Source: an uncultured Chloroflexia bacterium
GTDB lineage: Bacteria > Chloroflexota > Limnocylindria > Limnocylindrales > CSP1-4
Length of the DNA: 64,000 bases
NCBI GenBank assembly: GCA_963840375.1
Contig: CAWIYR010000003.1
Span: forward strand, 327,856 to 391,855
Direction of reading: 5' to 3'
In this document: piece by piece, positions 9,909 through 21,038 of the stretch
Numbering within the stretch: the stretch's first letter is position 1
Layout of the letters: every line of letters starts with the position of its first letter
Position numbers and translations under genes: made by a program
The notes under the pieces: generated by a model
Told to the model about the DNA's origin: nothing
Seen by the model: only the letters and a program-made list of their open reading frames with translations
Databases searched by the model: none

Positions 9909-10658
9909 CTACATCATCACCAGGCCGCCGTCGACCGCCAGGACCTGGCCGGTGATGTAGCCGGCCTCGTCCGAGGCGAGGAACGCGACGGCATCGGCGA
10001 CCTCCGCGGTCGTCCCGAAACGGCCCAGTGGGGTGGCCGTCTTGATCTGCTCCTGGAGCGGCTCGGGGAGATCCTGGGTGAGCTCGGTCAGGACGAACCC
10101 TGGGGCGACGGCGTTGGCCGTGATCCCCCGGCTGGCCAGCTCGCGGGCGGTCGCCTTCGTCAGCCCGATGAGCCCGGCCTTGGCCGAGCTGTAGTTCGCC
10201 TGGCCGGTCTGGCCCGCCTGACCCGACACGCTGGTGATGTTGACGATCCGGCCGGCCTTCGCCTTGAGCATCGGCCGGCTGACCGCCTTGGTCATGTAGA
10301 ACGCCCCGAAGAGGTTCGTCTCCAGGACGTCGCGCCAGGCTTCGAGGCTCATCCGCATGATCAGGTCGTCGCGGGTGATCCCGGCGTTGTTCACGAGGAT
10401 GTCGACCTTGCCGAAGGCCTCGAGGGTCTGCTTCACGATGGCCTCGGCCGCATCCGGGTCCTTGACGTCCCCCTGGATCGCCAGGCAGCGCCGGCCGAGC
10501 GTCTCGACCTCGGATCGCGTCGCGGCGGCGGCGGCGGCGTTACCTCGATAGCTGAAGGCCACGTCGGCGCCCTGCGTGGCCAGACGCAGCACGATCGCCC
10601 GCCCGATCCCGCGGGCGCCGCCGGTCACCAGCGCGGCCTTGCCGCTCAGATCGATCAT
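9909..10658 (-). CDS. fabG: 3-oxoacyl-ACP reductase
   Basis: TGGARGIG, NNAGITRD, YSSAK, VAPGF, DGG; fab context. Confidence 0.93.
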   Translation of the reverse strand: MIDLSGKAALVTGGARGIGRAIVLRLATQGADVAFSYRGNAAAAAATRSEVETLGRRCLAIQGDVKDPDAAEAIVKQTLEAFGKVDILVNNAGITRDDLIMRMSLEAWRDVLETNLFGAFYMTKAVSRPMLKAKAGRIVNITSVSGQAGQTGQANYSSAKAGLIGLTKATARELASRGITANAVAPGFVLTELTQDLPEPLQEQIKTATPLGRFGTTAEVADAVAFLASDEAGYITGQVLAVDGGLVMM

Positions 10659-11863
10659 GCGTGGACCTCCGAGTGCTGGGGGGCGTGGTCGGGCTCGCCC
10701 GGGACGACATCCTCGAGGTCGAGCTCGACGCCGGGGACGACCGGTCGGGCCAGGACCTCCAGGAGCGCGGCGGGGATCGGGTCGACCGAGTCCCAGTCGA
10801 CGGGCAGGCGGATCGCCACGTCCTCCGGCCGGATGGCCTCGGATCGCGCGCCGAGGGCCGGGTCCGCGGTCCACTCGATGGCGACCGCCCCTGACGTGAA
10901 GCCGGCCCCGAAGGCGACGATCACGATCCGGTCGCCGACCTTCACCCGACCCGAGTCGACCGCCTCGGCGAGGGCCATCGGGATCGAGGCGGCCGAGGTG
11001 TTCCCGTACTTGTCGAGGTTCACGAACATCCGGTCCATCGGCAGGCCGAGGCCGTCCGCCACCGCCTTGATGATCCGGATGTTCGCCTGGTGGGGGATGA
11101 ACAGGTCGATGTCCGAGGGTTCGAGGCCGGCCTTGCGCACCGCGGCGAGAGCCGTGCTGGCGAGCGTCCTGGTCGCGAACCGGTAGGTCTCGCGGCCCTC
11201 CATCCGGATGTAGTGCTCGCCGCGCTCGACGGTCGCCGCGGAGGGCGGGCTCTTCGCGCCACCGGCGGGAAGCCAGATCATGTAGGCGCCCTGGGGCTCG
11301 GTCGTCAGCTCGATCCCGAGCCCGCCGCCCGACTCCTCGGCGGCCGACAGGACGACCGCCCCGGCCCCGTCGCCGAAGAGGATGCAGGTGTTCCGGTCGG
11401 AGTAGTCGAGGAACCGGGTGAGCAGCTCGGCGCCGATGACGAGGACGTTCCGGGCCATCCCGCTCGCGATGTAGGCCTGGCCTGCCGACCAGGCGTAGAC
11501 AAAGCCGGAGCAGGCGGCGGCCACGTCCATCGCGAACGCCCGGGTGTTGCCGATGGCCTCCTTGACGAGGGCGGCCGTCGACGGCATCCAGTAGTCCGGG
11601 GTGAGGGTGGCGAGCAGGATGACGTCGATGTCGTCGGCTGAGATCCCGGCCACGGCGATCGCCCGCAGGGCGGCGACCGCCGCCATCGAGGCCGTCGTCT
11701 CGTGAGCGGCTGCGACCCGTCGCTCGCGGATGCCCGTCCGGCTGACGATCCACTCGTCGCTCGTGTCGACCATCCGCTCCAGGTCGGCGTTGGTCAGGAC
11801 CCCAGAGGGGGCGTACCGCCCCCAGCCGGTCACGTGGGCGTAGCGCCCGGGCTCGGTGCTCAC
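10655..11863 (-). CDS. fabH: Beta-ketoacyl-ACP synthase III with C-terminal extension
   Basis: DTSDEWIVSRTGI, AACSGF, FGDGAGA, PHQANIRI, GNTSAAS, FGAG. Confidence 0.93.
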   Translation of the reverse strand: MSTEPGRYAHVTGWGRYAPSGVLTNADLERMVDTSDEWIVSRTGIRERRVAAAHETTASMAAVAALRAIAVAGISADDIDVILLATLTPDYWMPSTAALVKEAIGNTRAFAMDVAAACSGFVYAWSAGQAYIASGMARNVLVIGAELLTRFLDYSDRNTCILFGDGAGAVVLSAAEESGGGLGIELTTEPQGAYMIWLPAGGAKSPPSAATVERGEHYIRMEGRETYRFATRTLASTALAAVRKAGLEPSDIDLFIPHQANIRIIKAVADGLGLPMDRMFVNLDKYGNTSAASIPMALAEAVDSGRVKVGDRIVIVAFGAGFTSGAVAIEWTADPALGARSEAIRPEDVAIRLPVDWDSVDPIPAALLEVLARPVVPGVELDLEDVVPGEPDHAPQHSEVHA

Positions 11864-12387
11864 AGCGGTTCCACCTCGATGAGCGGCTGCTTCGCCTTCA
11901 CGAGCTGGCCGCTCTCCGCCACGACCCTGACGACGCGGCCGGCCAGATCGCTCTTGATCTCGTTGAACAGCTTCATCGCCTCGATCAGACCGATGACCTG
12001 GCCGACGGCGACCTCGCCTCCGACCTGGACGTAGGCGGCCGCACCCGGCCCCGGCGCGGTGTAGAAGATGCCCGTGAGCGGCGCCTTGACCGACGGGCGG
12101 CTCGGTGCGGCGCCACCGTCGGCGGCCCGCGCTGCCCCGGCAGCTGGCTCGGCCGGAGCCGCCGCGACGACCGTCGCGCCGGCGAGGGGTGCGATCGCCG
12201 ACGGCTTGCGCAGGACGAGCCCGGTGCCGCCGGCCGCCACCTCGAGCTCGGCCAGGTCGCTCCGCTCGATGAGCCCGGTGAGCCGGTCGAGGAGCGCCAG
12301 CAGCGAGGCGTCGGCCGACAGGTCGCCGGCGACGCCTCCGCCGGTCGGCGTGCCGGTCCCGGTCCGGACCTCGGCGTCGTCGGTCAT
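11860..12387 (-). CDS. accB: Acetyl-CoA carboxylase biotin carboxyl carrier protein (biotinylatable)
   Basis: APLTGIFY..PGP, EAMKLFNEI biotinylation motif. Confidence 0.92.
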   Translation of the reverse strand: MTDDAEVRTGTGTPTGGGVAGDLSADASLLALLDRLTGLIERSDLAELEVAAGGTGLVLRKPSAIAPLAGATVVAAAPAEPAAGAARAADGGAAPSRPSVKAPLTGIFYTAPGPGAAAYVQVGGEVAVGQVIGLIEAMKLFNEIKSDLAGRVVRVVAESGQLVKAKQPLIEVEPL

Positions 12388-13661
12388 CGCTCGTACCGGG
12401 CGAAGAGGAGCGCGGCATTCTGACCGCCGAAGCCGAACGCGTTCGTCAGTGCGGCCCGCACCTCGCGGCGGGTCGCGTGGCCGGCACTCAGGTCGAGCCC
12501 CGCCGCGGCCTCGTCCGGGTCGTCGAGGTTGATCGTGGGCGGGACGAGACCCGTCCGGATCGCCTGGATCGTCGAGACCGCGGCGATCGCGCCGGCCGCC
12601 CCGAGGGTATGGCCGATCATCGACTTGTTCGCCGAGATCGTGACCTTCGGAGCGTGGTCGCCGAAGATCGTCCGGACGGCCGCGAGCTCGGCCTTGTCGC
12701 CCTCCGGGGTCGAGGTCGCGTGGGCGTTCACGTGGTCGATCGCCTCCGGCGGCAGGCCGGCCTTGGCCAGGGCCCGGCGGGCCGCGCGCACGGCGCCGAT
12801 CCCGCCCGGCGCCGGCAGGGTGATGTGCGAGGCGTCCGCGGTGGCCCCGTAGCCGACGAGCTCGGCGAGCGGCGTGGCCCCCCGCGCGACGGCGTGGTCG
12901 AGTGCCTCGAGGACGAGCGCGGCGCCACCCTCGCCGATGACGAAGCCGTCGCGGCCGCGATCGAATGGCCGGGAGGCCGCGGGCGGGTCGTCGTTGCGGG
13001 TCGAGAGCGCCTTCATCGAGCTGAAGCCGCCGAGCGAGGCCTCGTGGATCGCGGCCTCGACGCCCCCGGCGATCATCACGTCGGCGTCACCCCGGCGGAT
13101 GGTCTCCCACGCCTCGCCGATGGCGTGACCGCCGGTGGCGCAGGCCGACACCGTCGCCATGTTCGGACCGGTCGGCCCGAACTGGATGGCCACCTGGCCG
13201 GCGCAGACGTTGAGGATCGACATCGGGATGAAGAACGGGCTGATCCGGTCCGGCCCCCGCTCACCCATCAGCAGGATGTTCGAGAACATCGTGTTCGTCC
13301 CGCCGAGGCCCGAGCCGATGAACACCCCGGTCCGCTCGGCGAGCTCGCCGTCGAGGTGGTCGGGCAGGCCGGCCTGGTCAAGCGCCTCGCGAGCGACGAC
13401 GAGCCCGAACTGGATGTAGCGGTCCGTCCGCCGCAGGTCCTTCCGGTCGAGGATGTGGCTGGCGTCGAAGCCCGGAACCTCACCGGCGATCCGGGAATCG
13501 ACCCGCGACGGATCGAAGGCCTCGATCGTCCGGATCCCCGAACGGCCGGCGGTCAGCCCGGCCCAGGTCGAGGCGACGTCGGTGCCGAGGGCGGTCACCG
13601 CGCCCATCCCGGTCACGACGACCCTCCGCGGCGTTGCCGGCCAGCTCCAGGCGTCGGTCAT
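12384..13661 (-). CDS. fabF: Beta-ketoacyl-ACP synthase II
   Basis: RRVVVTGMG, SACATG, HATST, KSMIGHTLGAAG, NAFGFGGQN. Confidence 0.94.
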   Translation of the reverse strand: MTDAWSWPATPRRVVVTGMGAVTALGTDVASTWAGLTAGRSGIRTIEAFDPSRVDSRIAGEVPGFDASHILDRKDLRRTDRYIQFGLVVAREALDQAGLPDHLDGELAERTGVFIGSGLGGTNTMFSNILLMGERGPDRISPFFIPMSILNVCAGQVAIQFGPTGPNMATVSACATGGHAIGEAWETIRRGDADVMIAGGVEAAIHEASLGGFSSMKALSTRNDDPPAASRPFDRGRDGFVIGEGGAALVLEALDHAVARGATPLAELVGYGATADASHITLPAPGGIGAVRAARRALAKAGLPPEAIDHVNAHATSTPEGDKAELAAVRTIFGDHAPKVTISANKSMIGHTLGAAGAIAAVSTIQAIRTGLVPPTINLDDPDEAAAGLDLSAGHATRREVRAALTNAFGFGGQNAALLFARYER

Positions 13662-14401
13662 CGAACGAGCTTCCCGGTCCGGACCGTCGCGGCCCGGTAG
13701 ACGTCGCCGGGCAGGCCCCGGGCGGAGATCGCGTTCGAGACGACCATCGCGTCGAACGAGGCCCGATGGATCTCGGCCCGGACCTCGTCGCCCTCGATCT
13801 CGATGAGCGCCCAGGAGGCGGTGGGGTCGCCGTCGAAGACGTACCCAGCGCTGCCCGAGTTGACGATGACCCGCCAGCCGAGGTCGCGCACCTCGGGCAG
13901 ATGGGTGTGCCCGCAGGCGATGATCCGGGCGTCGGTCCCCGAGGCCCGCTCGAGCGACACGTTCGCGTCGAGGGCCGGGTCGAACCCCTCGGTCTGCGAG
14001 CCGGGCGAGGCGTGGCAGACGAGGGTGAGCGTGTCGTCGAGCTGGATCCGGCGTTCCGCCGGGAGCCGCCGGAGCCAGTCGACCCGCTCCGGACCGATCG
14101 CCTCGTGGGCCCACTCGGCGGCCGCCCGGATCGAATCGGGGACGCCGTCGACCATCCAGGGGAACGCGGCGCCGTAGTCGAAGTCGGCGACCGCGATGTC
14201 GGTGTTGCCCTGGATGACGAGCGCGCCGTCCGCCTCCAGTTCGCGGGTCGCGTCGATGGCCGCAGCCGGCTCTGGGCCGTTGAGGACGTGGTCCCCGGCG
14301 ATCATCACCGCGTCGGGGCGGGCGGCCTTGAGCGCGAGCCGCACCGCCTCGAGCGCGAGGGCGTTGCCGTGGACGTCCCCGAACAGGGCGATCCGGGCCA
14401 T
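13658..14401 (-). CDS. Calcineurin-like metallophosphoesterase (YfcE-like)
   Basis: DVHGN, GD, GNTD, HASP, GHTH, NSGSAG motifs. Confidence 0.88.
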   Translation of the reverse strand: MARIALFGDVHGNALALEAVRLALKAARPDAVMIAGDHVLNGPEPAAAIDATRELEADGALVIQGNTDIAVADFDYGAAFPWMVDGVPDSIRAAAEWAHEAIGPERVDWLRRLPAERRIQLDDTLTLVCHASPGSQTEGFDPALDANVSLERASGTDARIIACGHTHLPEVRDLGWRVIVNSGSAGYVFDGDPTASWALIEIEGDEVRAEIHRASFDAMVVSNAISARGLPGDVYRAATVRTGKLVR

Positions 14402-14904
14402 CAGCGGAGCACCGACGCGTCCGGGATGATGAAGGTGAGGGTCGCCTCGCAGGCGACCTCGCCATCGACCGAGGCGACGCCCCGACCGCGCCCGAAGCGC
14501 CGGCCGAGCTTCTCCATCGTGACCTCGAGCCGGAGCGTGTCGCCGGGCGCGACCACCCGCTTGAAGCGGCACTCGTCGATCCCGCCGAAGAGGCCGATCC
14601 GGTCGCCGAAGCCGGGCTGCTTCGCGACGTAGACCGCCATCGTCTGGGCGAGCGCCTCCACCTGGATGACGCCGGGCATCACCGGGAGCCCCGGGAAATG
14701 GCCCTGGAAGAACCACTCGGTCGCCGTCACGCCCTTGATCCCGACGATCCGGCTCGCCGCCGGGTCGTACTCGACGATCCGGTCCACGAGGAGGAACGGC
14801 CAGCGATGCGGGATGAGCGCCTCGATCTCGCGGGTCGTGTGGACGACCCCGGGTCGCTCGGTCCCGGGGCCCGATGGGGCGGCGGGGACGACAGGTTCGG
14901 TCAC
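14401..14904 (-). CDS. fabZ: 3-hydroxyacyl-ACP dehydratase
   Basis: IPHRWPFLLVDRI, FQGHFPG.PVMPGV..EALAQ. Confidence 0.93.
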   Translation of the reverse strand: MTEPVVPAAPSGPGTERPGVVHTTREIEALIPHRWPFLLVDRIVEYDPAASRIVGIKGVTATEWFFQGHFPGLPVMPGVIQVEALAQTMAVYVAKQPGFGDRIGLFGGIDECRFKRVVAPGDTLRLEVTMEKLGRRFGRGRGVASVDGEVACEATLTFIIPDASVLR

Positions 14905-15028
14905 GGGCGACTCCAGCTGGGGGATCGGGGGTGGCGCCAAGTCTGACGGCTCGGCGGCCGGTCGTGCGAACGCTCGATGCAGGTCTGCATGGAGCCACGG
15001 TCGATGGCGAGGGGCGTCGGCGGGCGGC

Positions 15029-16399
15029 TCACCGGCGCTCGGCGGCCGCGAGGAACGCCGCACTGCCGACCCGGTCGAGGAGGTTCGTCGTCATCCGTCC
15101 CTCGAGGAAGAGCTCGTTGGCGAGGAGCGCCCGGTGGATCGGCACGTTCGTGACCAGGCCCTCGATGATGAGCTCGTCGAGGGCGGCCGCCGCCCGGCCG
15201 ATCGCGGCGTCGCGATCGCGACCCCAGACCACGAGCTTGCCGAGGAGCGAGTCGTAGAACGGGGGGACCTCGTAGCCGGCGAAGAGATGCGAGTCCATCC
15301 GGACGCCGGGCCCGCCTGGCGCCTGGTAGCGCTCGACGATCCCGGCACTGGGCCGGAAGTCGTGGTCGACGTCCTCGGCGTTGATCCGCAGCTCGATGGC
15401 GTGGCCGCGGATGTCGATGTCGGCCTGGGTCAGCCCGAGCGGTTCGCCGGCGGCGATCCGGATCTGGGTCGCGACGAGGTCGATCCCGGTCAGCATCTCG
15501 GTGACCGGGTGCTCCACCTGGATCCGGCAGTTGATCTCGATGAAGAACGCGTCGCCGTTGCCGTCGACGAGGAACTCGAGGGTTCCCAGGTTCTCGTAGC
15601 CGGCCGCGATCACGGCCCGGATCGCCCGGTCCGCCAGGCTCGCCCGGGCTGCCGGCGAGAGCGCCGGGGTGGGCGCTTCCTCGAGGATCTTCTGGTGCCG
15701 CCGCTGGACCGAGCAGTCCCGCTCGCCCATGTGGACGCCGCTGCCGAAGCGGTCCACCGCGACCTGGATCTCGACGTGACGAGTCTCCTCGAGCCATTTC
15801 TCCAGGTACAGCGAGTCGTCGCCGAAGGCCGCCTTCGCCTCGGATCGGCAGATCTTCAGGGCGCCCTCGAGCTCGCGGGCGGAGCGGACCATCCGCATCC
15901 CCTTGCCGCCGCCGCCGGCGCTCGGCTTGATGAGCACCGGGTAGCCGATCCGCTCGGCCTCCTCCAGCCCGTGGAGGTCGTCCCGGAGCATGCCGTTCGA
16001 GCCGGGGATCGTCGGCAGGCCGAAGCCGCCGAGCAGCCGCCGGGTCCCCTCCTTGCTGGCGAACCGCTCGAGGACCTGCGGTGGCGGACCGATGAACGTG
16101 AGGTCGTGGGCCCGGACGACCTCGGCGAAGTCGGCATCCTCGGACAGGAATCCGTAGCCCGGGTGGACGGCGTCGCAACCGGTCACGATGGCGGCGCTGA
16201 TGAGCGCCGGGGCCGACAGGTAGCTCCGCTTGGCGTCGGCCGGCCCGATGCAGATCGCCTCGTCGGCGAGGCGGACGGCGAGGCTGTCGACGTCGGCCTC
16301 GCTGTAGGCGACGACCGCCTCGACGCCGAGCGCCCGGCAGGCGCGCAGGATGCGCAGGGCGATCTCGCCGCGGTTGGCGATGAGGATCTTCTGGAACAT
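15029..16399 (-). CDS. accC: Acetyl-CoA carboxylase biotin carboxylase
   Basis: KILIANRGEIA, HPGYGFLSE, GGGGKGMR, RIQVEHPVTE, YDSLLGKL. Confidence 0.95.
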   Translation of the reverse strand: MFQKILIANRGEIALRILRACRALGVEAVVAYSEADVDSLAVRLADEAICIGPADAKRSYLSAPALISAAIVTGCDAVHPGYGFLSEDADFAEVVRAHDLTFIGPPPQVLERFASKEGTRRLLGGFGLPTIPGSNGMLRDDLHGLEEAERIGYPVLIKPSAGGGGKGMRMVRSARELEGALKICRSEAKAAFGDDSLYLEKWLEETRHVEIQVAVDRFGSGVHMGERDCSVQRRHQKILEEAPTPALSPAARASLADRAIRAVIAAGYENLGTLEFLVDGNGDAFFIEINCRIQVEHPVTEMLTGIDLVATQIRIAAGEPLGLTQADIDIRGHAIELRINAEDVDHDFRPSAGIVERYQAPGGPGVRMDSHLFAGYEVPPFYDSLLGKLVVWGRDRDAAIGRAAAALDELIIEGLVTNVPIHRALLANELFLEGRMTTNLLDRVGSAAFLAAAERR

Positions 16400-16416: not shown

Positions 16417-17069
16417 TCAGCTCTCGTCCGATGCGCCGTCGAGCGGCGCCGGCGTCGTCGACAGGAGCTCCACCCAGACCAGCTCCTGCCCGTACTCGAC
16501 GGCCTCACCCGGCTCCACCAGGCTCGCGCCGACGATGCCGTCGGCGGGGGCCAGCACCTCGGTCGGCACGCCGAGCACGTCGATCGAGCCGATGGGGTCG
16601 CCGGCCCGGACCCGGGAGCCGGCCACGGTCCCGGACCGCGGCTGAAAGAAGCCCACCGCCGGCGAGGTGGCCACCGACCGGTACGGGTCGCGACCTCGGG
16701 CCGGGCGCTCGGTGACGGCGGTGCCGGCCGGGGTCGGGTCGGACGCCTGGTGATCGTCGCTCGGGCCGGGTCCCACCGGGGTCAGCTCGGATCTCGACGG
16801 TGCCTCGGGGACGCCCGGTGAGCGCGGGCCGCCCCGTCCAGCGCGTCCCTCGACGCGACGACCGCCGACCGGCCCCGACCCCTCCGGTCGACGAAGGCGG
16901 ATCCGCCAGTCACCCTCGCGGACCTCGATCTCGCCGAGGCCGCTCGCGCCGAGCTTGGCGATGAGGGCGGGGATCAGCTCGTCGGCCAGGGCGTCGATGG
17001 CCCGGTGGTCGGCGAGCCGGTCGCCGGGCTCACGGGCCCGGTCGCCCGTCGCGTCGCCGCCTCGTCCGC

Positions 17070-17073
<4 letters not shown>
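16417..17073 (-). CDS. BCCP paralog lacking the biotin-acceptor lysine (BADC-like)
   Basis: BCCP N-terminal motif (SGLGEIEVREGDWRIRLRR) and lipoyl-type domain SPAVGFF..VRAGD..IDVLGV..VEYGQEL; no Lys in that domain. Confidence 0.8.
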
Positions 17074-18057
<984 letters not shown>

Positions 18058-18065
<8 letters not shown>

Positions 18066-19056
18066 GGGTCCGGCCCTCGGCAAGGTCGGCCGGCTGACCG
18101 GAGCCGTTCGAACCCGGCGCACCCGTGTCGCCCTCGGGGATGACCTTATCGGCCAGGGCGCTCAGGAACGAGAGTGGCCGGAACCCGGGCAGCGACCCGC
18201 CGTCGGCGGCCACGGCCTCCTCGACCCCGGCCGGCTGCAGGTAGCCCACGAGCGCCGCGACCTCGGTCCGCAGGTCGCTCCGGTGGACGACCCGGTCGAC
18301 GAAGCCGTGACGGAAGAGGAACTCGGCCCGCTGGAACCCGTCGGGCAGCTCGCCGCCGATCGTACCGGCGTTGACTCGGGCCCCGGCGAACCCGATGAGC
18401 GCGTTCGGCTCGGCCAGGTTGACGTCCCCGAGGGCAGCGAAGGAGGCGAAGACGCCACCGGTGGTCGGGTCGCTCATGATCGAGATGAACGGGATCCCGG
18501 CGGTGCGCAGGCGCTCGGTGGCCGCGACCGTCTTCGCGAGCTGCATGAGCGCGAGCGTGCCCTCCTGCATCCGGGCGCCGCCGGAGGCCGAGACGACGAC
18601 GAGCGGGAGCCTGGCCTCGAGGGCCGCCTCGGCCGCCCGGGTGACCTTCTCGCCGACGACCGCGCCCATCGAGCCGCCCATGAACCCGAAATCCATCACG
18701 CAGATCGCGACCCGGTGGCCGCCGATCGAGCCGAAGCCCCAGACGGCGGCGTCGCGCATCCCAGTGGCGACCTGGGCCGCGGCGACCCGGTCGGGATAGG
18801 CCTTCTGGTCGACGAAACCGAGCGGGTCGACCGACTGGAGCCCCGCGTCCTGCTCGTGGAAGGTGCCCTCGTCCATCAGCTGCCCCAGCCGGGCCGAGGC
18901 CGAGAGCCGGAAGTGGTGCCCGCAGGTCGGGCAGACCCGCATCGTCTTGTCGAGCTGTCGGTTGAACAGCTGCTCGCCGCACGACGGGCACTTCGTCCAG
19001 AGGTCGGCGGGGAAGGCGTCCTTGCGAGGCCGGAACGAGGGCAGCTTGATCGGCAT
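18058..19056 (-). CDS. accD: Acetyl-CoA carboxylase carboxyltransferase beta
   Basis: Zn ribbon CPSC..CPTC, FMGGSMG, SGGARMQEG, PTTGGV. Confidence 0.94.
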
Positions 19057-19592
19057 CAGGCCAGCCTCACGCGGTCGACGCGGTCATGGGCCCCGCGGAT
19101 CGCCCGGGCCGCCGGATGGGCTCCGGGCCGGCTGAGACGCCAGGCCACGATGGCGGCGCCGGCGATCGAGATCGCAGCCGAGGCGATCGTCCCGCCGATG
19201 ATGAGCGGCCGGCGGTCCTGGCTGGCCGTCGCCTCGGGTCGCGCGGGGTCGAGGAGGTCGAGCGGGTCGACCCGAGCGAGCGTGCGGGACGGGCGGCCCT
19301 CGGTGCCGGGCGGCGGGACGGCCCCGGCGGTCTCCCCGGCGACCCTGGCGAGCGACATCCGGGCAGCGACGTCGGCGAGCCGGCCGGCGAGCCGCTCCTC
19401 GAAGCGGAACGACGGATGGACCCGGGTCAGGTCGACGGCCAGGCGAAGGGCCGCGGCGCGGACGAGGGGATCGAGCTCGGCGGCGCTCGGCGTGTCGACC
19501 GCGCCGCGGTCCCCGGCCGACAGGAGCGCCTCCAGGTAGCGATCGGTGACGAGGGCCTCGACGTCCCGCCCGTCGCGGGGGACCAGGCTCAT
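19056..19592 (-). CDS. Single-TM protein, probable anti-sigma factor
   Basis: Coupled to the ECF sigma gene (ATGA overlap); HPSFRFEERL motif, one C-terminal TM. Confidence 0.6.
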   Translation of the reverse strand: MSLVPRDGRDVEALVTDRYLEALLSAGDRGAVDTPSAAELDPLVRAAALRLAVDLTRVHPSFRFEERLAGRLADVAARMSLARVAGETAGAVPPPGTEGRPSRTLARVDPLDLLDPARPEATASQDRRPLIIGGTIASAAISIAGAAIVAWRLSRPGAHPAARAIRGAHDRVDRVRLA

Positions 19593-20206
19593 GCCCGGTC
19601 GCCCAGGTCGCGGGCGACGGCCCGCAGGCCGCGATGGATGAGGACACGAACGGCGCCCTCGGAGCGACCGAGGACTCCGGCGATCTCGGCCGTCGACATC
19701 TCCTCGACGAAGCGCAGGACGAGCGCGCGCCGCCGGTCGTCGGGCAGACGGCCGACCGCGGCCCACGCCTCGACGGCCTCGTCGCGGCGGCTCATGCCCG
19801 CCTCCAGGTCGAGCGGAGCGGGGACGGTCGTCGCGGCGTCGAGCCCGGTCTCGGGGTGACGGCGGCGGGTCCGCCGGGCGTTGGCGACGACGTTCCGGGC
19901 GACCTGGAAGAGCCAGACGCGGAAGGTCGAGGCACCCTCACCGTCGGCCGGCCGGGCGCGCTCCTCGAACCGCGGCAGGGCGCCGAGGGCGAGCAGGAAC
20001 GTCCGCTCGGTGGCGTCCTCGGCGTCGTGGTGGTGGCCGAGCTCGTAGTACGCGTAGCTGTACACCTGGGCGAGGTACTTCCGATAGAGGGCGTCGAACC
20101 GGGCGGGGTCGCGCAGGGCGGCCTCGACGAGCGGTCGGTCGCGGTCGAGATGGACGATGCGGCGGTCCTCCCCCGCCGTCACCTTCCTGAACACCGCTCG
20201 GGCCAT
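19589..20206 (-). CDS. ECF RNA polymerase sigma factor
   Basis: FDALYRKY..DAEDATERTF..FRVWLFQVARN (region 2); LRFVEEMSTAEIA..SEGAVRVLIHRG (region 4). Confidence 0.92.
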   Translation of the reverse strand: MARAVFRKVTAGEDRRIVHLDRDRPLVEAALRDPARFDALYRKYLAQVYSYAYYELGHHHDAEDATERTFLLALGALPRFEERARPADGEGASTFRVWLFQVARNVVANARRTRRRHPETGLDAATTVPAPLDLEAGMSRRDEAVEAWAAVGRLPDDRRRALVLRFVEEMSTAEIAGVLGRSEGAVRVLIHRGLRAVARDLGDRA

Positions 20207-20210
20207 CGCG

Positions 20211-21038
20211 TTACACCCCGCTCACGGCGGGCGACGCCTCGACGGCCAGCCGGACCTGGACGACCTCGCCGCTGAGGATCGTCCGCTCACCGCGCTCGGT
20301 CGACGGGTCGTCCACCACCAGGCCGCCGCTGACGGCGTCGACGCCGAGCGCGCGGGCCGTCGTCGTCGTGCCGTCCGGAAGCGCCAGCCGGACCGTCCGG
20401 CCGGTCGTCAGCTGGCGGGCGGTCCAGTCGGCCACGTCGAACCGGCCGCCCCGCAGGGCGAGCGCGCGAGCCTCCAGCCGGGTCGTGAACGCGTCGAGCA
20501 GGCTCGCGTGGTCGATCGGCCGCCCGCCCGAGGCTTCGCGCAGGCTGGTCATCGAGCCGGCGAGCGCGGCCGGGAAGTCGGTCGCCGCCCAGTCCCCGTT
20601 GACCCCGATCCCGACGATCGCCCGGGGGTCGGCCGTCCCGAGACCGACCGTCTCGCCGAGCACCCCGGCGACCTTCCGGACCGATCCGTCACTGGACTCG
20701 ACCACGAGGTCGTTGGGCCACTTCAGGCGGATCGCCCGGTCGGACAGGCCGGCGACCTCCTCCGCGGCGTCGGCCATCGCCAGGGCCACGATCGCGGCCA
20801 GGCGCCAGGCGCCGTCGGATGCGAGCCAGGCCGGACGGAAGCCGAGCGAGCAGAGCAGGCCGGCGCCGGGTGGCGCGGTCCATGTCCGACCCTCCCGACC
20901 ACGACCGGCGGTCTGCTCGTCGGCGACGGCGAGGCAGACCTCAGGCGTCCCCTCGTCCAGCCAGGCCCGGACGACGTCGTTCGTCGAGCCGATCGCGGCG
21001 AAGTGCTCCTGGCGGGAGAGGATGGAGCCGTCGGTCAC
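20211..21038 (-). CDS. birA: Biotin protein ligase (no N-terminal HTH)
   Basis: STND, QTAGRGREGRTW, LKWPND, KVAGVL. Confidence 0.92.
   Translation of the reverse strand: MTDGSILSRQEHFAAIGSTNDVVRAWLDEGTPEVCLAVADEQTAGRGREGRTWTAPPGAGLLCSLGFRPAWLASDGAWRLAAIVALAMADAAEEVAGLSDRAIRLKWPNDLVVESSDGSVRKVAGVLGETVGLGTADPRAIVGIGVNGDWAATDFPAALAGSMTSLREASGGRPIDHASLLDAFTTRLEARALALRGGRFDVADWTARQLTTGRTVRLALPDGTTTTARALGVDAVSGGLVVDDPSTERGERTILSGEVVQVRLAVEASPAVSGV

Follow-up and report, generated by a model that had tools for sequence, protein, structure and literature searches.

A lysine-less paralog of the biotin carboxyl carrier protein in the acc operon of Limnocylindria, probably a BADC-like subunit of acetyl-CoA carboxylase

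The DNA studied here is a stretch of 64,000 nucleotides from an uncultured Chloroflexia bacterium (GTDB lineage Bacteria; Chloroflexota; Limnocylindria; Limnocylindrales; CSP1-4), located at positions 327,856 to 391,855 of contig CAWIYR010000003.1 in assembly GCA_963840375.1. The whole stretch is called the window, and coordinates refer to it unless a locus is named. Its minus strand carries an operon for acetyl-CoA carboxylase (ACCase), in which an open reading frame (ORF) of 218 amino acids with a GTG start (16417-17073) is flanked by accA, the gene of the carboxyltransferase alpha subunit, and accC, the gene of biotin carboxylase (BC). The ORF encodes a paralog of biotin carboxyl carrier protein (BCCP, AccB) that lacks the biotinyl-lysine. 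It is referred to as K-less, and the same slot in related loci as X. Comparison with its homologs marks the gene as an ancient BCCP paralog, lysine-less but functional, and it appears as one branch of an old family of such paralogs that is spread across Chloroflexota and Armatimonadota. Because the operon position and a controlled prediction of its complex with AccC and AccB both fit, K-less is probably, on sequence, position and model together, a non-catalytic ACCase subunit similar to the BADC proteins of plants.

K-less has the three-part architecture and the fold of canonical AccB. AlphaFold2, run on an alignment of 62 diverse family members (A1), modeled an N-terminal helix (residues 16-44) and two strands (residues 48-53 and 56-61) at a predicted local distance difference test score (pLDDT) of about 91, and residues 16-61 (16891-17028, minus strand) correspond to the α/β/β oligomerization motif of BCCPs. 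The following disordered linker, rich in Arg (23 Arg), Gly, and Pro (residues 62-130; 16684-16890, minus strand), was modeled at a pLDDT of 47-56 and varied in length and sequence in A1. Residues 131-205 (16459-16683, minus strand) formed a biotinyl/lipoyl-type β-barrel at a pLDDT of 97, for which the best Foldseek matches were the biotinyl domains of the BCCPs 5gua, 1bdo, and 4hr7, with TM scores on the target of 0.80-0.87 (0.80-0.83 for 1bdo and 4hr7). The profile built from A1 matched the full-length BCCP of E. coli (4hr7_B) from the N-terminal motif through the C-terminus with an E-value of 4.9e-17, and a VEYGQ-type C-terminal motif was common to K-less and many BCCPs. With BLASTP, the only match between K-less and the AccB of the window was a 31-residue N-terminal segment (E 0.001), so their homology became visible only through profile and fold comparison. 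The earlier note, made from the letters of the window, had assigned a BCCP N-terminal motif, a linker, and a lipoyl-type domain to the protein, and all three were recovered by the AlphaFold2 model, the profile alignment, and Foldseek. The Bacillus subtilis protein BLAP (PDB 1z6h), which is also a small stand-alone barrel-sandwich protein, gave a weak profile match (E 0.00065). BLAP retains a modifiable lysine and is not known to have the N-terminal motif of BCCP or the linker. The nearest clusters in the ESM Atlas were unnamed Chloroflexota entries labeled "hypothetical protein", in which 31-60% of the members carried PF00364, adding nothing to the homolog searches.

The difference between K-less and canonical AccB (E. 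coli 4HR7_B and 1BDO; TIGR00531) is concentrated around the site of biotin attachment. The hairpin of K-less reads I164-D-V-L-G-V169 (16567-16584, minus strand), and the family consensus hVDvLGV was aligned to iVEAMKM of E. coli BCCP, with G168 at the position of the biotinyl-lysine at the hairpin tip. The thumb insertion between strands 2 and 3, characteristic of ACCase BCCPs, was absent, which appeared as a gap of six residues against both E. coli BCCP and the AccB of the window, and the score with TIGR00531 stayed below the curated cut-off. The sole lysine of the protein, K40, was located in the N-terminal helix; no lysine was present in the C-terminal domain and no cysteine in the whole protein. 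Since the barrel domain is without Lys and the protein without Cys, K-less is presumed to be unbiotinylated and its domain to be incapable of being biotinylated or carboxylated. Both the IDVLGV hairpin in place of the biotinylation motif and the lysine-free domain had been pointed out in the earlier note, and they hold in the direct reading of the sequence and in the alignment with E. coli BCCP.

The loss of the lysine was a conserved trait of the family. Among the best 120 of 3654 homologs, the MK motif did not occur in the last 85 residues in any (0/120), and 81 of the 120 contained no lysine at all in this segment; one row of this set, P0069, was aberrant, being either frame-shifted or fused. 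An exhaustive search across 1.84 billion cluster representatives returned 970 proteins at E≤0.001, 278 of them at E≤1e-10. When the best 150 representatives at 50% identity were aligned with the query, 144 of the 151 rows carried the hairpin x[D/E/N]xLGx and one carried INVIGV, the other six being fragments or misaligned, and none of the 151 had K at the hairpin tip. L167, G168, V192, E193, and G195 were invariant in A1. The median ratio of nonsynonymous to synonymous substitution rates (dN/dS; Nei-Gojobori method, 66 pairs of 12 genus-level orthologs) was 0.11 for the N-terminal motif, 0.11 for the barrel, and 0.53 for the linker, so both folded domains are under purifying selection. Orthologs with a retained MK motif, which the earlier note had named as the sign of a decay limited to this genome, were not seen; the lysine-less hairpin was fixed across homologs and loci, and the features of K-less are not due to chance because the same features recurred in every ortholog examined. 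A pseudogene or local decay was rejected on the conserved hairpin and the dN/dS of 0.11.

In the operon, the GTG start of K-less overlapped the stop codon of accA (17070-18122, minus strand, start uncertain; PF03255, E 5e-114) in the sequence GTGA, with GGAGG located 8 nt upstream, and the ATG of accC (15029-16399, minus strand; PF00289, PF02786, and PF02785) followed 17 nt past the stop codon of K-less. The canonical accB (11860-12387, minus strand) was located 4030 nt downstream of K-less between fabF and fabH, where the earlier note had placed it, and its ATG overlapped the fabF stop. Its product contained EAMKLFNEIKSD and the thumb and scored 52.8 bits with PF00364 and 103.9 bits with TIGR00531. 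The genome as a whole encoded five Biotin_lipoyl domains above the cut-off, the AccB of the window among them, in addition to the sub-threshold K-less.

The source names of the homologs and loci pointed to Chloroflexota, class Limnocylindria, in which both the gene and its setting were preserved. A query with the single protein matched 37 of 41 related genomes, the four misses being 66-92% complete, and the profile matched every one of the 46 class genomes sampled at a completeness of 80% or more (23/23, 4/4, 17/17, and 2/2 in families f1, f2, f3, and f4). In the 52 Limnocylindria-type loci taken from GTDB representatives, the lysine-less hairpin was present in every one, and the gene order accD-accA-X-accC was likewise kept in 52/52; across the class, the order was accD-accA-X-(fabD)-accC-fabZ. 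The wider order birA ... accD-accA-X-accC-fabZ-x-fabF-accB-fabH was kept across related loci, with birA upstream of accD in most. The true accB, recognized by EAMKL[FY]NEIKS, was found 4.2-5.0 kb downstream in 43 loci, and the remaining nine ran for less than 3.9 kb beyond the hairpin. A fabD gene (PF00698) stood between X and accC in three families of the class (L054:6438-7403, L057, and L191:8110-9033), which implied that the K-less gene is embedded in a larger operon for fatty acid synthesis. The two paralogs also differed in the C-terminal motif: VEYGQ was present in all 52 K-less copies and in none of the 43 copies of true AccB, 42 of which had [VI][KR]x[KRQH][QG] at this position, for example V-K-A-K-Q. 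VEYGQ was common in the BCCPs of other phyla, and the true AccB of Dictyobacter, which is also encoded after fabF, and that of Armatimonadota were likewise without it. Two short contigs labeled Methylomirabilota and Solirubrobacterales (L024 and L055) bore typical Limnocylindria-type accA-X-accC loci, which suggests that they are mis-binned contigs in those metagenome-assembled genomes.

In a wider sample, the profile matched 189 of 401 Chloroflexota genomes at E≤1e-12. The 30 best Chloroflexota loci were all lysine-less at the hairpin tip, with K two residues past the tip in one of them (L127), and of 40 further best matches chosen across families, 30 were lysine-less, with a tip residue of G, N, R, M, or A, and the other 10 were true BCCPs. 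Examples outside Limnocylindria are L187:4720-5169 and L186:3665-3889, from loci L143-L194 of genomes G048-G435. The usual neighborhood outside Limnocylindria and Armatimonadota was pepP-efp-X-xseA, and one f4 locus, of the same class as K-less, showed the acc operon form. Cultured carriers of the paralog were found among Ktedonobacteria, namely Dictyobacter species, Ktedonosporobacter rubrisoli, and Tengunoibacter tsumagoiensis; in the homologs of the Dictyobacter paralog, xMKx was found in 0 of 120 and [Q/E/S]SLN in at least 84 of 120, the anchor pattern of this count having missed the other 36. In Armatimonadota, 107 of 151 sampled genomes were matched at E≤1e-6, and by reading of the hairpins 25 of the 30 best loci (L195-L224 set) were lysine-less and five were lysine-bearing. 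Nearly all of these 30 lay beside accC with a small Cys-rich gene between them, often with efp upstream. A true BCCP co-occurred in all three genomes checked (one Armatimonadota, Dictyobacter aurantiacus, and one other Chloroflexota), and a stand-alone accC was present in five of five, including that Armatimonadota genome and Dictyobacter aurantiacus. The Limnocylindria, f4, f33, and Armatimonadota forms had lost the thumb; its length was kept in the other lysine-less lineages. In public source names, the proteins are called "acetyl-CoA carboxylase biotin carboxyl carrier protein" or "biotin/lipoyl-containing protein", despite having no attachment lysine. In Armatimonadota (L064:5830-8063, L195-L224), the small gene that separates the paralog from accC encodes about 150 amino acids without a Pfam match, with a hydrophobic stretch after the N-terminus and a Cys/His motif at the C-terminus.

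The phylogenies were consistent with an old duplication. In the full-length tree, made by a quick method from 65 rows and 159 columns after rows missing either domain were dropped, and including 17 of the 33 Limnocylindria loci bearing both genes, the K-less proteins of Limnocylindria formed one clade (support 95 in the Shimodaira-Hasegawa approximate likelihood ratio test) on a long stem, apart from the true AccB of the class. The K-less and AccB clades resembled each other in inner order, which is what vertical inheritance of an old duplication would give. In the tree of the barrel alone (96 rows, 53 of them lysine-less, and 80 columns; eight lysine-bearing rows were skipped and the mis-cut accB of L060 was dropped), all 43 lysine-bearing BCCPs fell on one side of a branch with a support of 100, and after removal of the seven hairpin columns (73 left), one Armatimonadota row crossed this branch. 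On the 73-column alignment, a tree uniting all 53 lysine-less rows was 27.9 log-likelihood units above the free quick tree and was not rejected by the approximately unbiased test (p 0.892). A single origin of the lysine-less rows is the better-fitting, though tentative, reading of this short alignment.

A three-chain prediction with AccC (alignment A2), AccB (A3), and K-less (A1), in which every chain had an alignment of its own and K-less was the partner that was scored, gave a model score of 0.69, compared with 0.14 for the best of three controls. It thereby passed the mark of the prediction tool, which 116 of 157 solved complexes and 2 of 215 mismatched pairs had attained. The runs agreed in at least 58% of the contacts, and the pLDDT of the partner was at least 63. 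In the model, residues 139-142 (AVGF), 166-167 and 169 of the hairpin, and 191-196 (AVEYGQ) of K-less contacted residues 34-98 of AccC, which lie inside the PF00289 domain Biotin_carb_N (1-110) and outside the ATP-grasp region (119-322). The helix and hairpin at the N-terminus of K-less (residues 14-42 and 55-64) contacted the same motif of AccB (residues 21-57). Binding of K-less to AccC and AccB is a prediction of this model.

Plant BADC is described as a homolog of BCCP that is inactive, has no biotinyl-lysine, and binds BC; one reading makes it an inhibitor, another the glue of the BC-BCCP subcomplex (PMC11926652, PMC12706156, PMC13585458, PMC11889953, 10.64898/2025.12.30.697075). It is also described as mediating the interaction of BC with BCCP (PMC11926652, PMC11889953), and the BADC subunits are called "unique to the plant htACCase" (PMC11926652). 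Like Arabidopsis BADC1-3 and the BADC-like protein of Chlamydomonas, for which a non-catalytic binding to BC and BCCP has been proposed (PMC11926652, PMC13585458, PMC11889953), K-less is a BCCP homolog without the biotinyl-lysine beside a true BCCP and a stand-alone BC, and it falls within the sequence-level definition of BADC (PMC11926652, PMC13585458), its binding being predicted. Unlike BADC, it comes from a bacterium, its gene belongs to an acc operon with translational coupling to accA, and the Limnocylindria form has the thumb deleted. In active ACC filaments of E. coli, BCCP is fixed at a non-catalytic site of BC, and the first 30 residues of BCCP form an α/β/β motif that was modeled as a β-barrel retaining the carriers (PMC11160672). 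In BC1 of Chloroflexus, a fused BC-BCCP, the BC dimers are joined by a barrel that is built from the hairpin preceding the BCCP core and on which full activity depends (PMC11077971). The oligomerizing hairpin before the carrier domain, which was kept under strong constraint in K-less, resembles these elements of Chloroflexus aurantiacus BC1 and E. coli BCCP; theirs belong to biotinylated carriers, whereas that of K-less sits on a carrier domain that presumably cannot be loaded. The epsilon subunit of the AccE/PccE type in actinobacterial acyl-CoA carboxylases, said to be the "glue" for holoenzyme assembly (PMC11926652) and reported to tether (10.1101/2025.10.28.685139), is also a small non-catalytic subunit, but it is unrelated to BCCP in sequence and fold and belongs to another carboxylase architecture. 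The mycobacterial carboxylase regulators MSMEG_0435-0436 were considered as an analog and rejected as another kind of protein; the Foldseek matches to their entries were the BCCP domains of AccA3. Full-text literature searches, with the papers on BADC evolution and the supplements lying outside them, turned up no account of a lysine-less BCCP paralog in bacteria. Salie 2016, Conrado 2024, and Ye 2020, which may bear on this negative, reportedly treat such subunits as absent from prokaryotes.

We consider it an even call that K-less acts as a non-catalytic anchor of a four-subunit ACCase, made together with AccD, AccA, and AccC. The lipoyl-type domain would dock on the N-terminal domain of BC via the invariant motifs SPAVG, DxLG, and VEYGQ, and the N-terminal helix-hairpin would join the same motif of biotinylated AccB to give a mixed oligomer, so that K-less would serve as a fixed anchor keeping the mobile carrier near the enzyme. 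The labor would then be divided between K-less as the anchor and the fabF-linked AccB, which is without VEYGQ, as the mobile carrier. In E. coli, a single BCCP does both, parking at the non-catalytic BC site and carrying biotin, and here the two tasks would be split between two paralogs. Such an anchor corresponds to the glue reading of plant BADC. A bolder version, which we hold to be less likely than not, places the split of BCCP near or before the divergence of Chloroflexota and Armatimonadota, with two obligatory subunits as the outcome, a biotin-free anchor and a mobile carrier. The anchor would permanently fill the non-catalytic BCCP site on BC and nucleate the N-terminal barrel, and the mobile biotinylated carrier would have given up the anchor motif in the change from VEYGQ to VKAKQ. 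If this were true, a five-subunit terrabacterial ACCase architecture would have arisen independently of plant BADC, and the parked BCCP of the E. coli structures would represent a functional state.

Several results weigh against K-less being an ACCase subunit, or against the model behind it. K-less misses three defining features of a working BCCP, namely the biotinyl-lysine, the thumb, and a score above the curated cut-offs: PF00364 gave 19.3 bits against a cut-off of 22.1, and TIGR00531 gave 36.8 bits against 115.2. The active-site surfaces of BCCP are altered in K-less because the thumb is lost and the hairpin is changed. The counts behind the mark for the complex score hold here only roughly, because the use of own alignments and of three chains differs from the calibration. 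The pass may reflect a likeness to already solved BC-BCCP complexes (4HR7 and 8UXZ-type entries) that the predictor had memorized. When AccC was swapped for an unrelated protein, the score fell to 0.14, so the contact with AccB alone is not confidently supported. Covariation of evolutionary rates with the other eight operon proteins, for which only seven loci were usable, gave uninformative partial correlations of 0.44 with accA, 0.34 with fabF, 0.31 with accC, and 0.22 with accB. In 11 Chloroflexota loci examined outside the class, efp adjoined the paralog in 9 and xseA in 7, and accC adjoined it in none, which makes an ACCase-independent role possible. The BADC-like ACCase subunit or regulator proposed in the earlier note is partly supported, in that the operon position and the predicted complex fit it, and the picture widens in that K-less is one branch of a larger family which, outside Limnocylindria and Armatimonadota, mostly adjoins efp and xseA instead of acc genes.

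Three other explanations were weighed against the BADC-like subunit. K-less could be a competitive decoy that occupies the BCCP docking or active site on BC, blocks holo-AccB, and lowers the flux when in excess, the role first proposed for plant BADC. The sequence evidence is the same as for the anchor, the predicted docking on AccC suits it, and BADC is portrayed as a homolog of BCCP that is inactive, binds BC, and keeps BCCP from reaching it (PMC13585458), in line with the inhibitor model of BADC in PMC11926652. However, co-transcription and translational coupling with the catalytic subunits are more what one expects of a stoichiometric component than of a conditional inhibitor, the contact is predicted on the BC N-domain (34-98) and not on the ATP-grasp region, and the conserved N-terminal oligomerization motif would be superfluous for a simple decoy; we therefore regard inhibition as rather unlikely. 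The pepP-efp-X-xseA neighborhood, which is without accC outside Limnocylindria and Armatimonadota, raises the alternative of a role apart from ACCase catalysis, either as a transcriptional autoregulator of the fatty acid operon via the N-terminal domain, a role reported for E. coli AccB, or as a partner of a machine linked to efp and xseA. The Arg-rich linker would agree with this, as would the regulation of expression discussed for the N-terminus of E. coli AccB (PMC11160672). Against it, some efp-linked slots of Armatimonadota hold lysine-bearing BCCPs followed by accC, so the linkage to efp could be a leftover; by dN/dS, the barrel and the N-terminus are equally constrained, the barrel bears the motifs predicted to contact AccC, and no DNA-binding fold was found in the AlphaFold2 model or by Foldseek. 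Such a role seems improbable to us.

The third explanation takes K-less as a decaying or neutral, functionless relic of a duplicated accB, to which the loss of the catalytic lysine and the thumb and the family scores under the curated cut-offs would point. It is hardly credible in view of the low dN/dS in both domains, the residues invariant across the 62 diverse members, the ORFs present in each of the 46 sampled class genomes, and the high confidence of the modeled barrel.

The BADC-like subunit matters beyond this operon, since the plant literature treats lysine-less, non-catalytic BCCP homologs as a peculiarity of plastid ACCase. A conserved bacterial counterpart would show that bacteria also reached this solution, probably independently. 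Such a counterpart would also offer a simple, operon-encoded system, with cultured carriers in Ktedonobacteria, for the question of glue versus inhibitor, and the functional meaning of the non-catalytic docking of BCCP in the E. coli structures would become testable. For annotation, it would mean that proteins unable to carry biotin are labeled as biotin carboxyl carrier protein.

The remaining genes of the operon, all on the minus strand, surround this core. Upstream of the acc genes lies a birA-like gene for biotin protein ligase (20211-21038; PF03099), followed by a gene for a sigma factor of the extracytoplasmic function (ECF) type between birA and accD (19589-20206), an ORF without a Pfam match that overlaps the sigma factor gene and possibly encodes an anti-sigma factor (19056-19766), and accD, encoding the carboxyltransferase beta subunit with a zinc ribbon (18058-19056; PF01039 and PF17848). 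Downstream of accC are fabZ (14401-15063, start uncertain; PF07977), fabF (about 12384-13664, the start being an estimate based on where the Pfam match falls within a longer ORF; PF00109 and PF02801), and, after accB, fabH (10655 to about 11810, start estimated; PF08545 and PF08541). Between positions 10000 and 21500 of the window, no promoter-like site was found, and the two terminator-like matches, against 1.1 expected by chance, were both inside coding sequence and did not exceed chance. The fatty acid operon also contains, after fabZ and before fabF, a gene for a calcineurin-like metallophosphoesterase (about 13658-14398; PF12850), and most related loci showed a gap of comparable length at this place.

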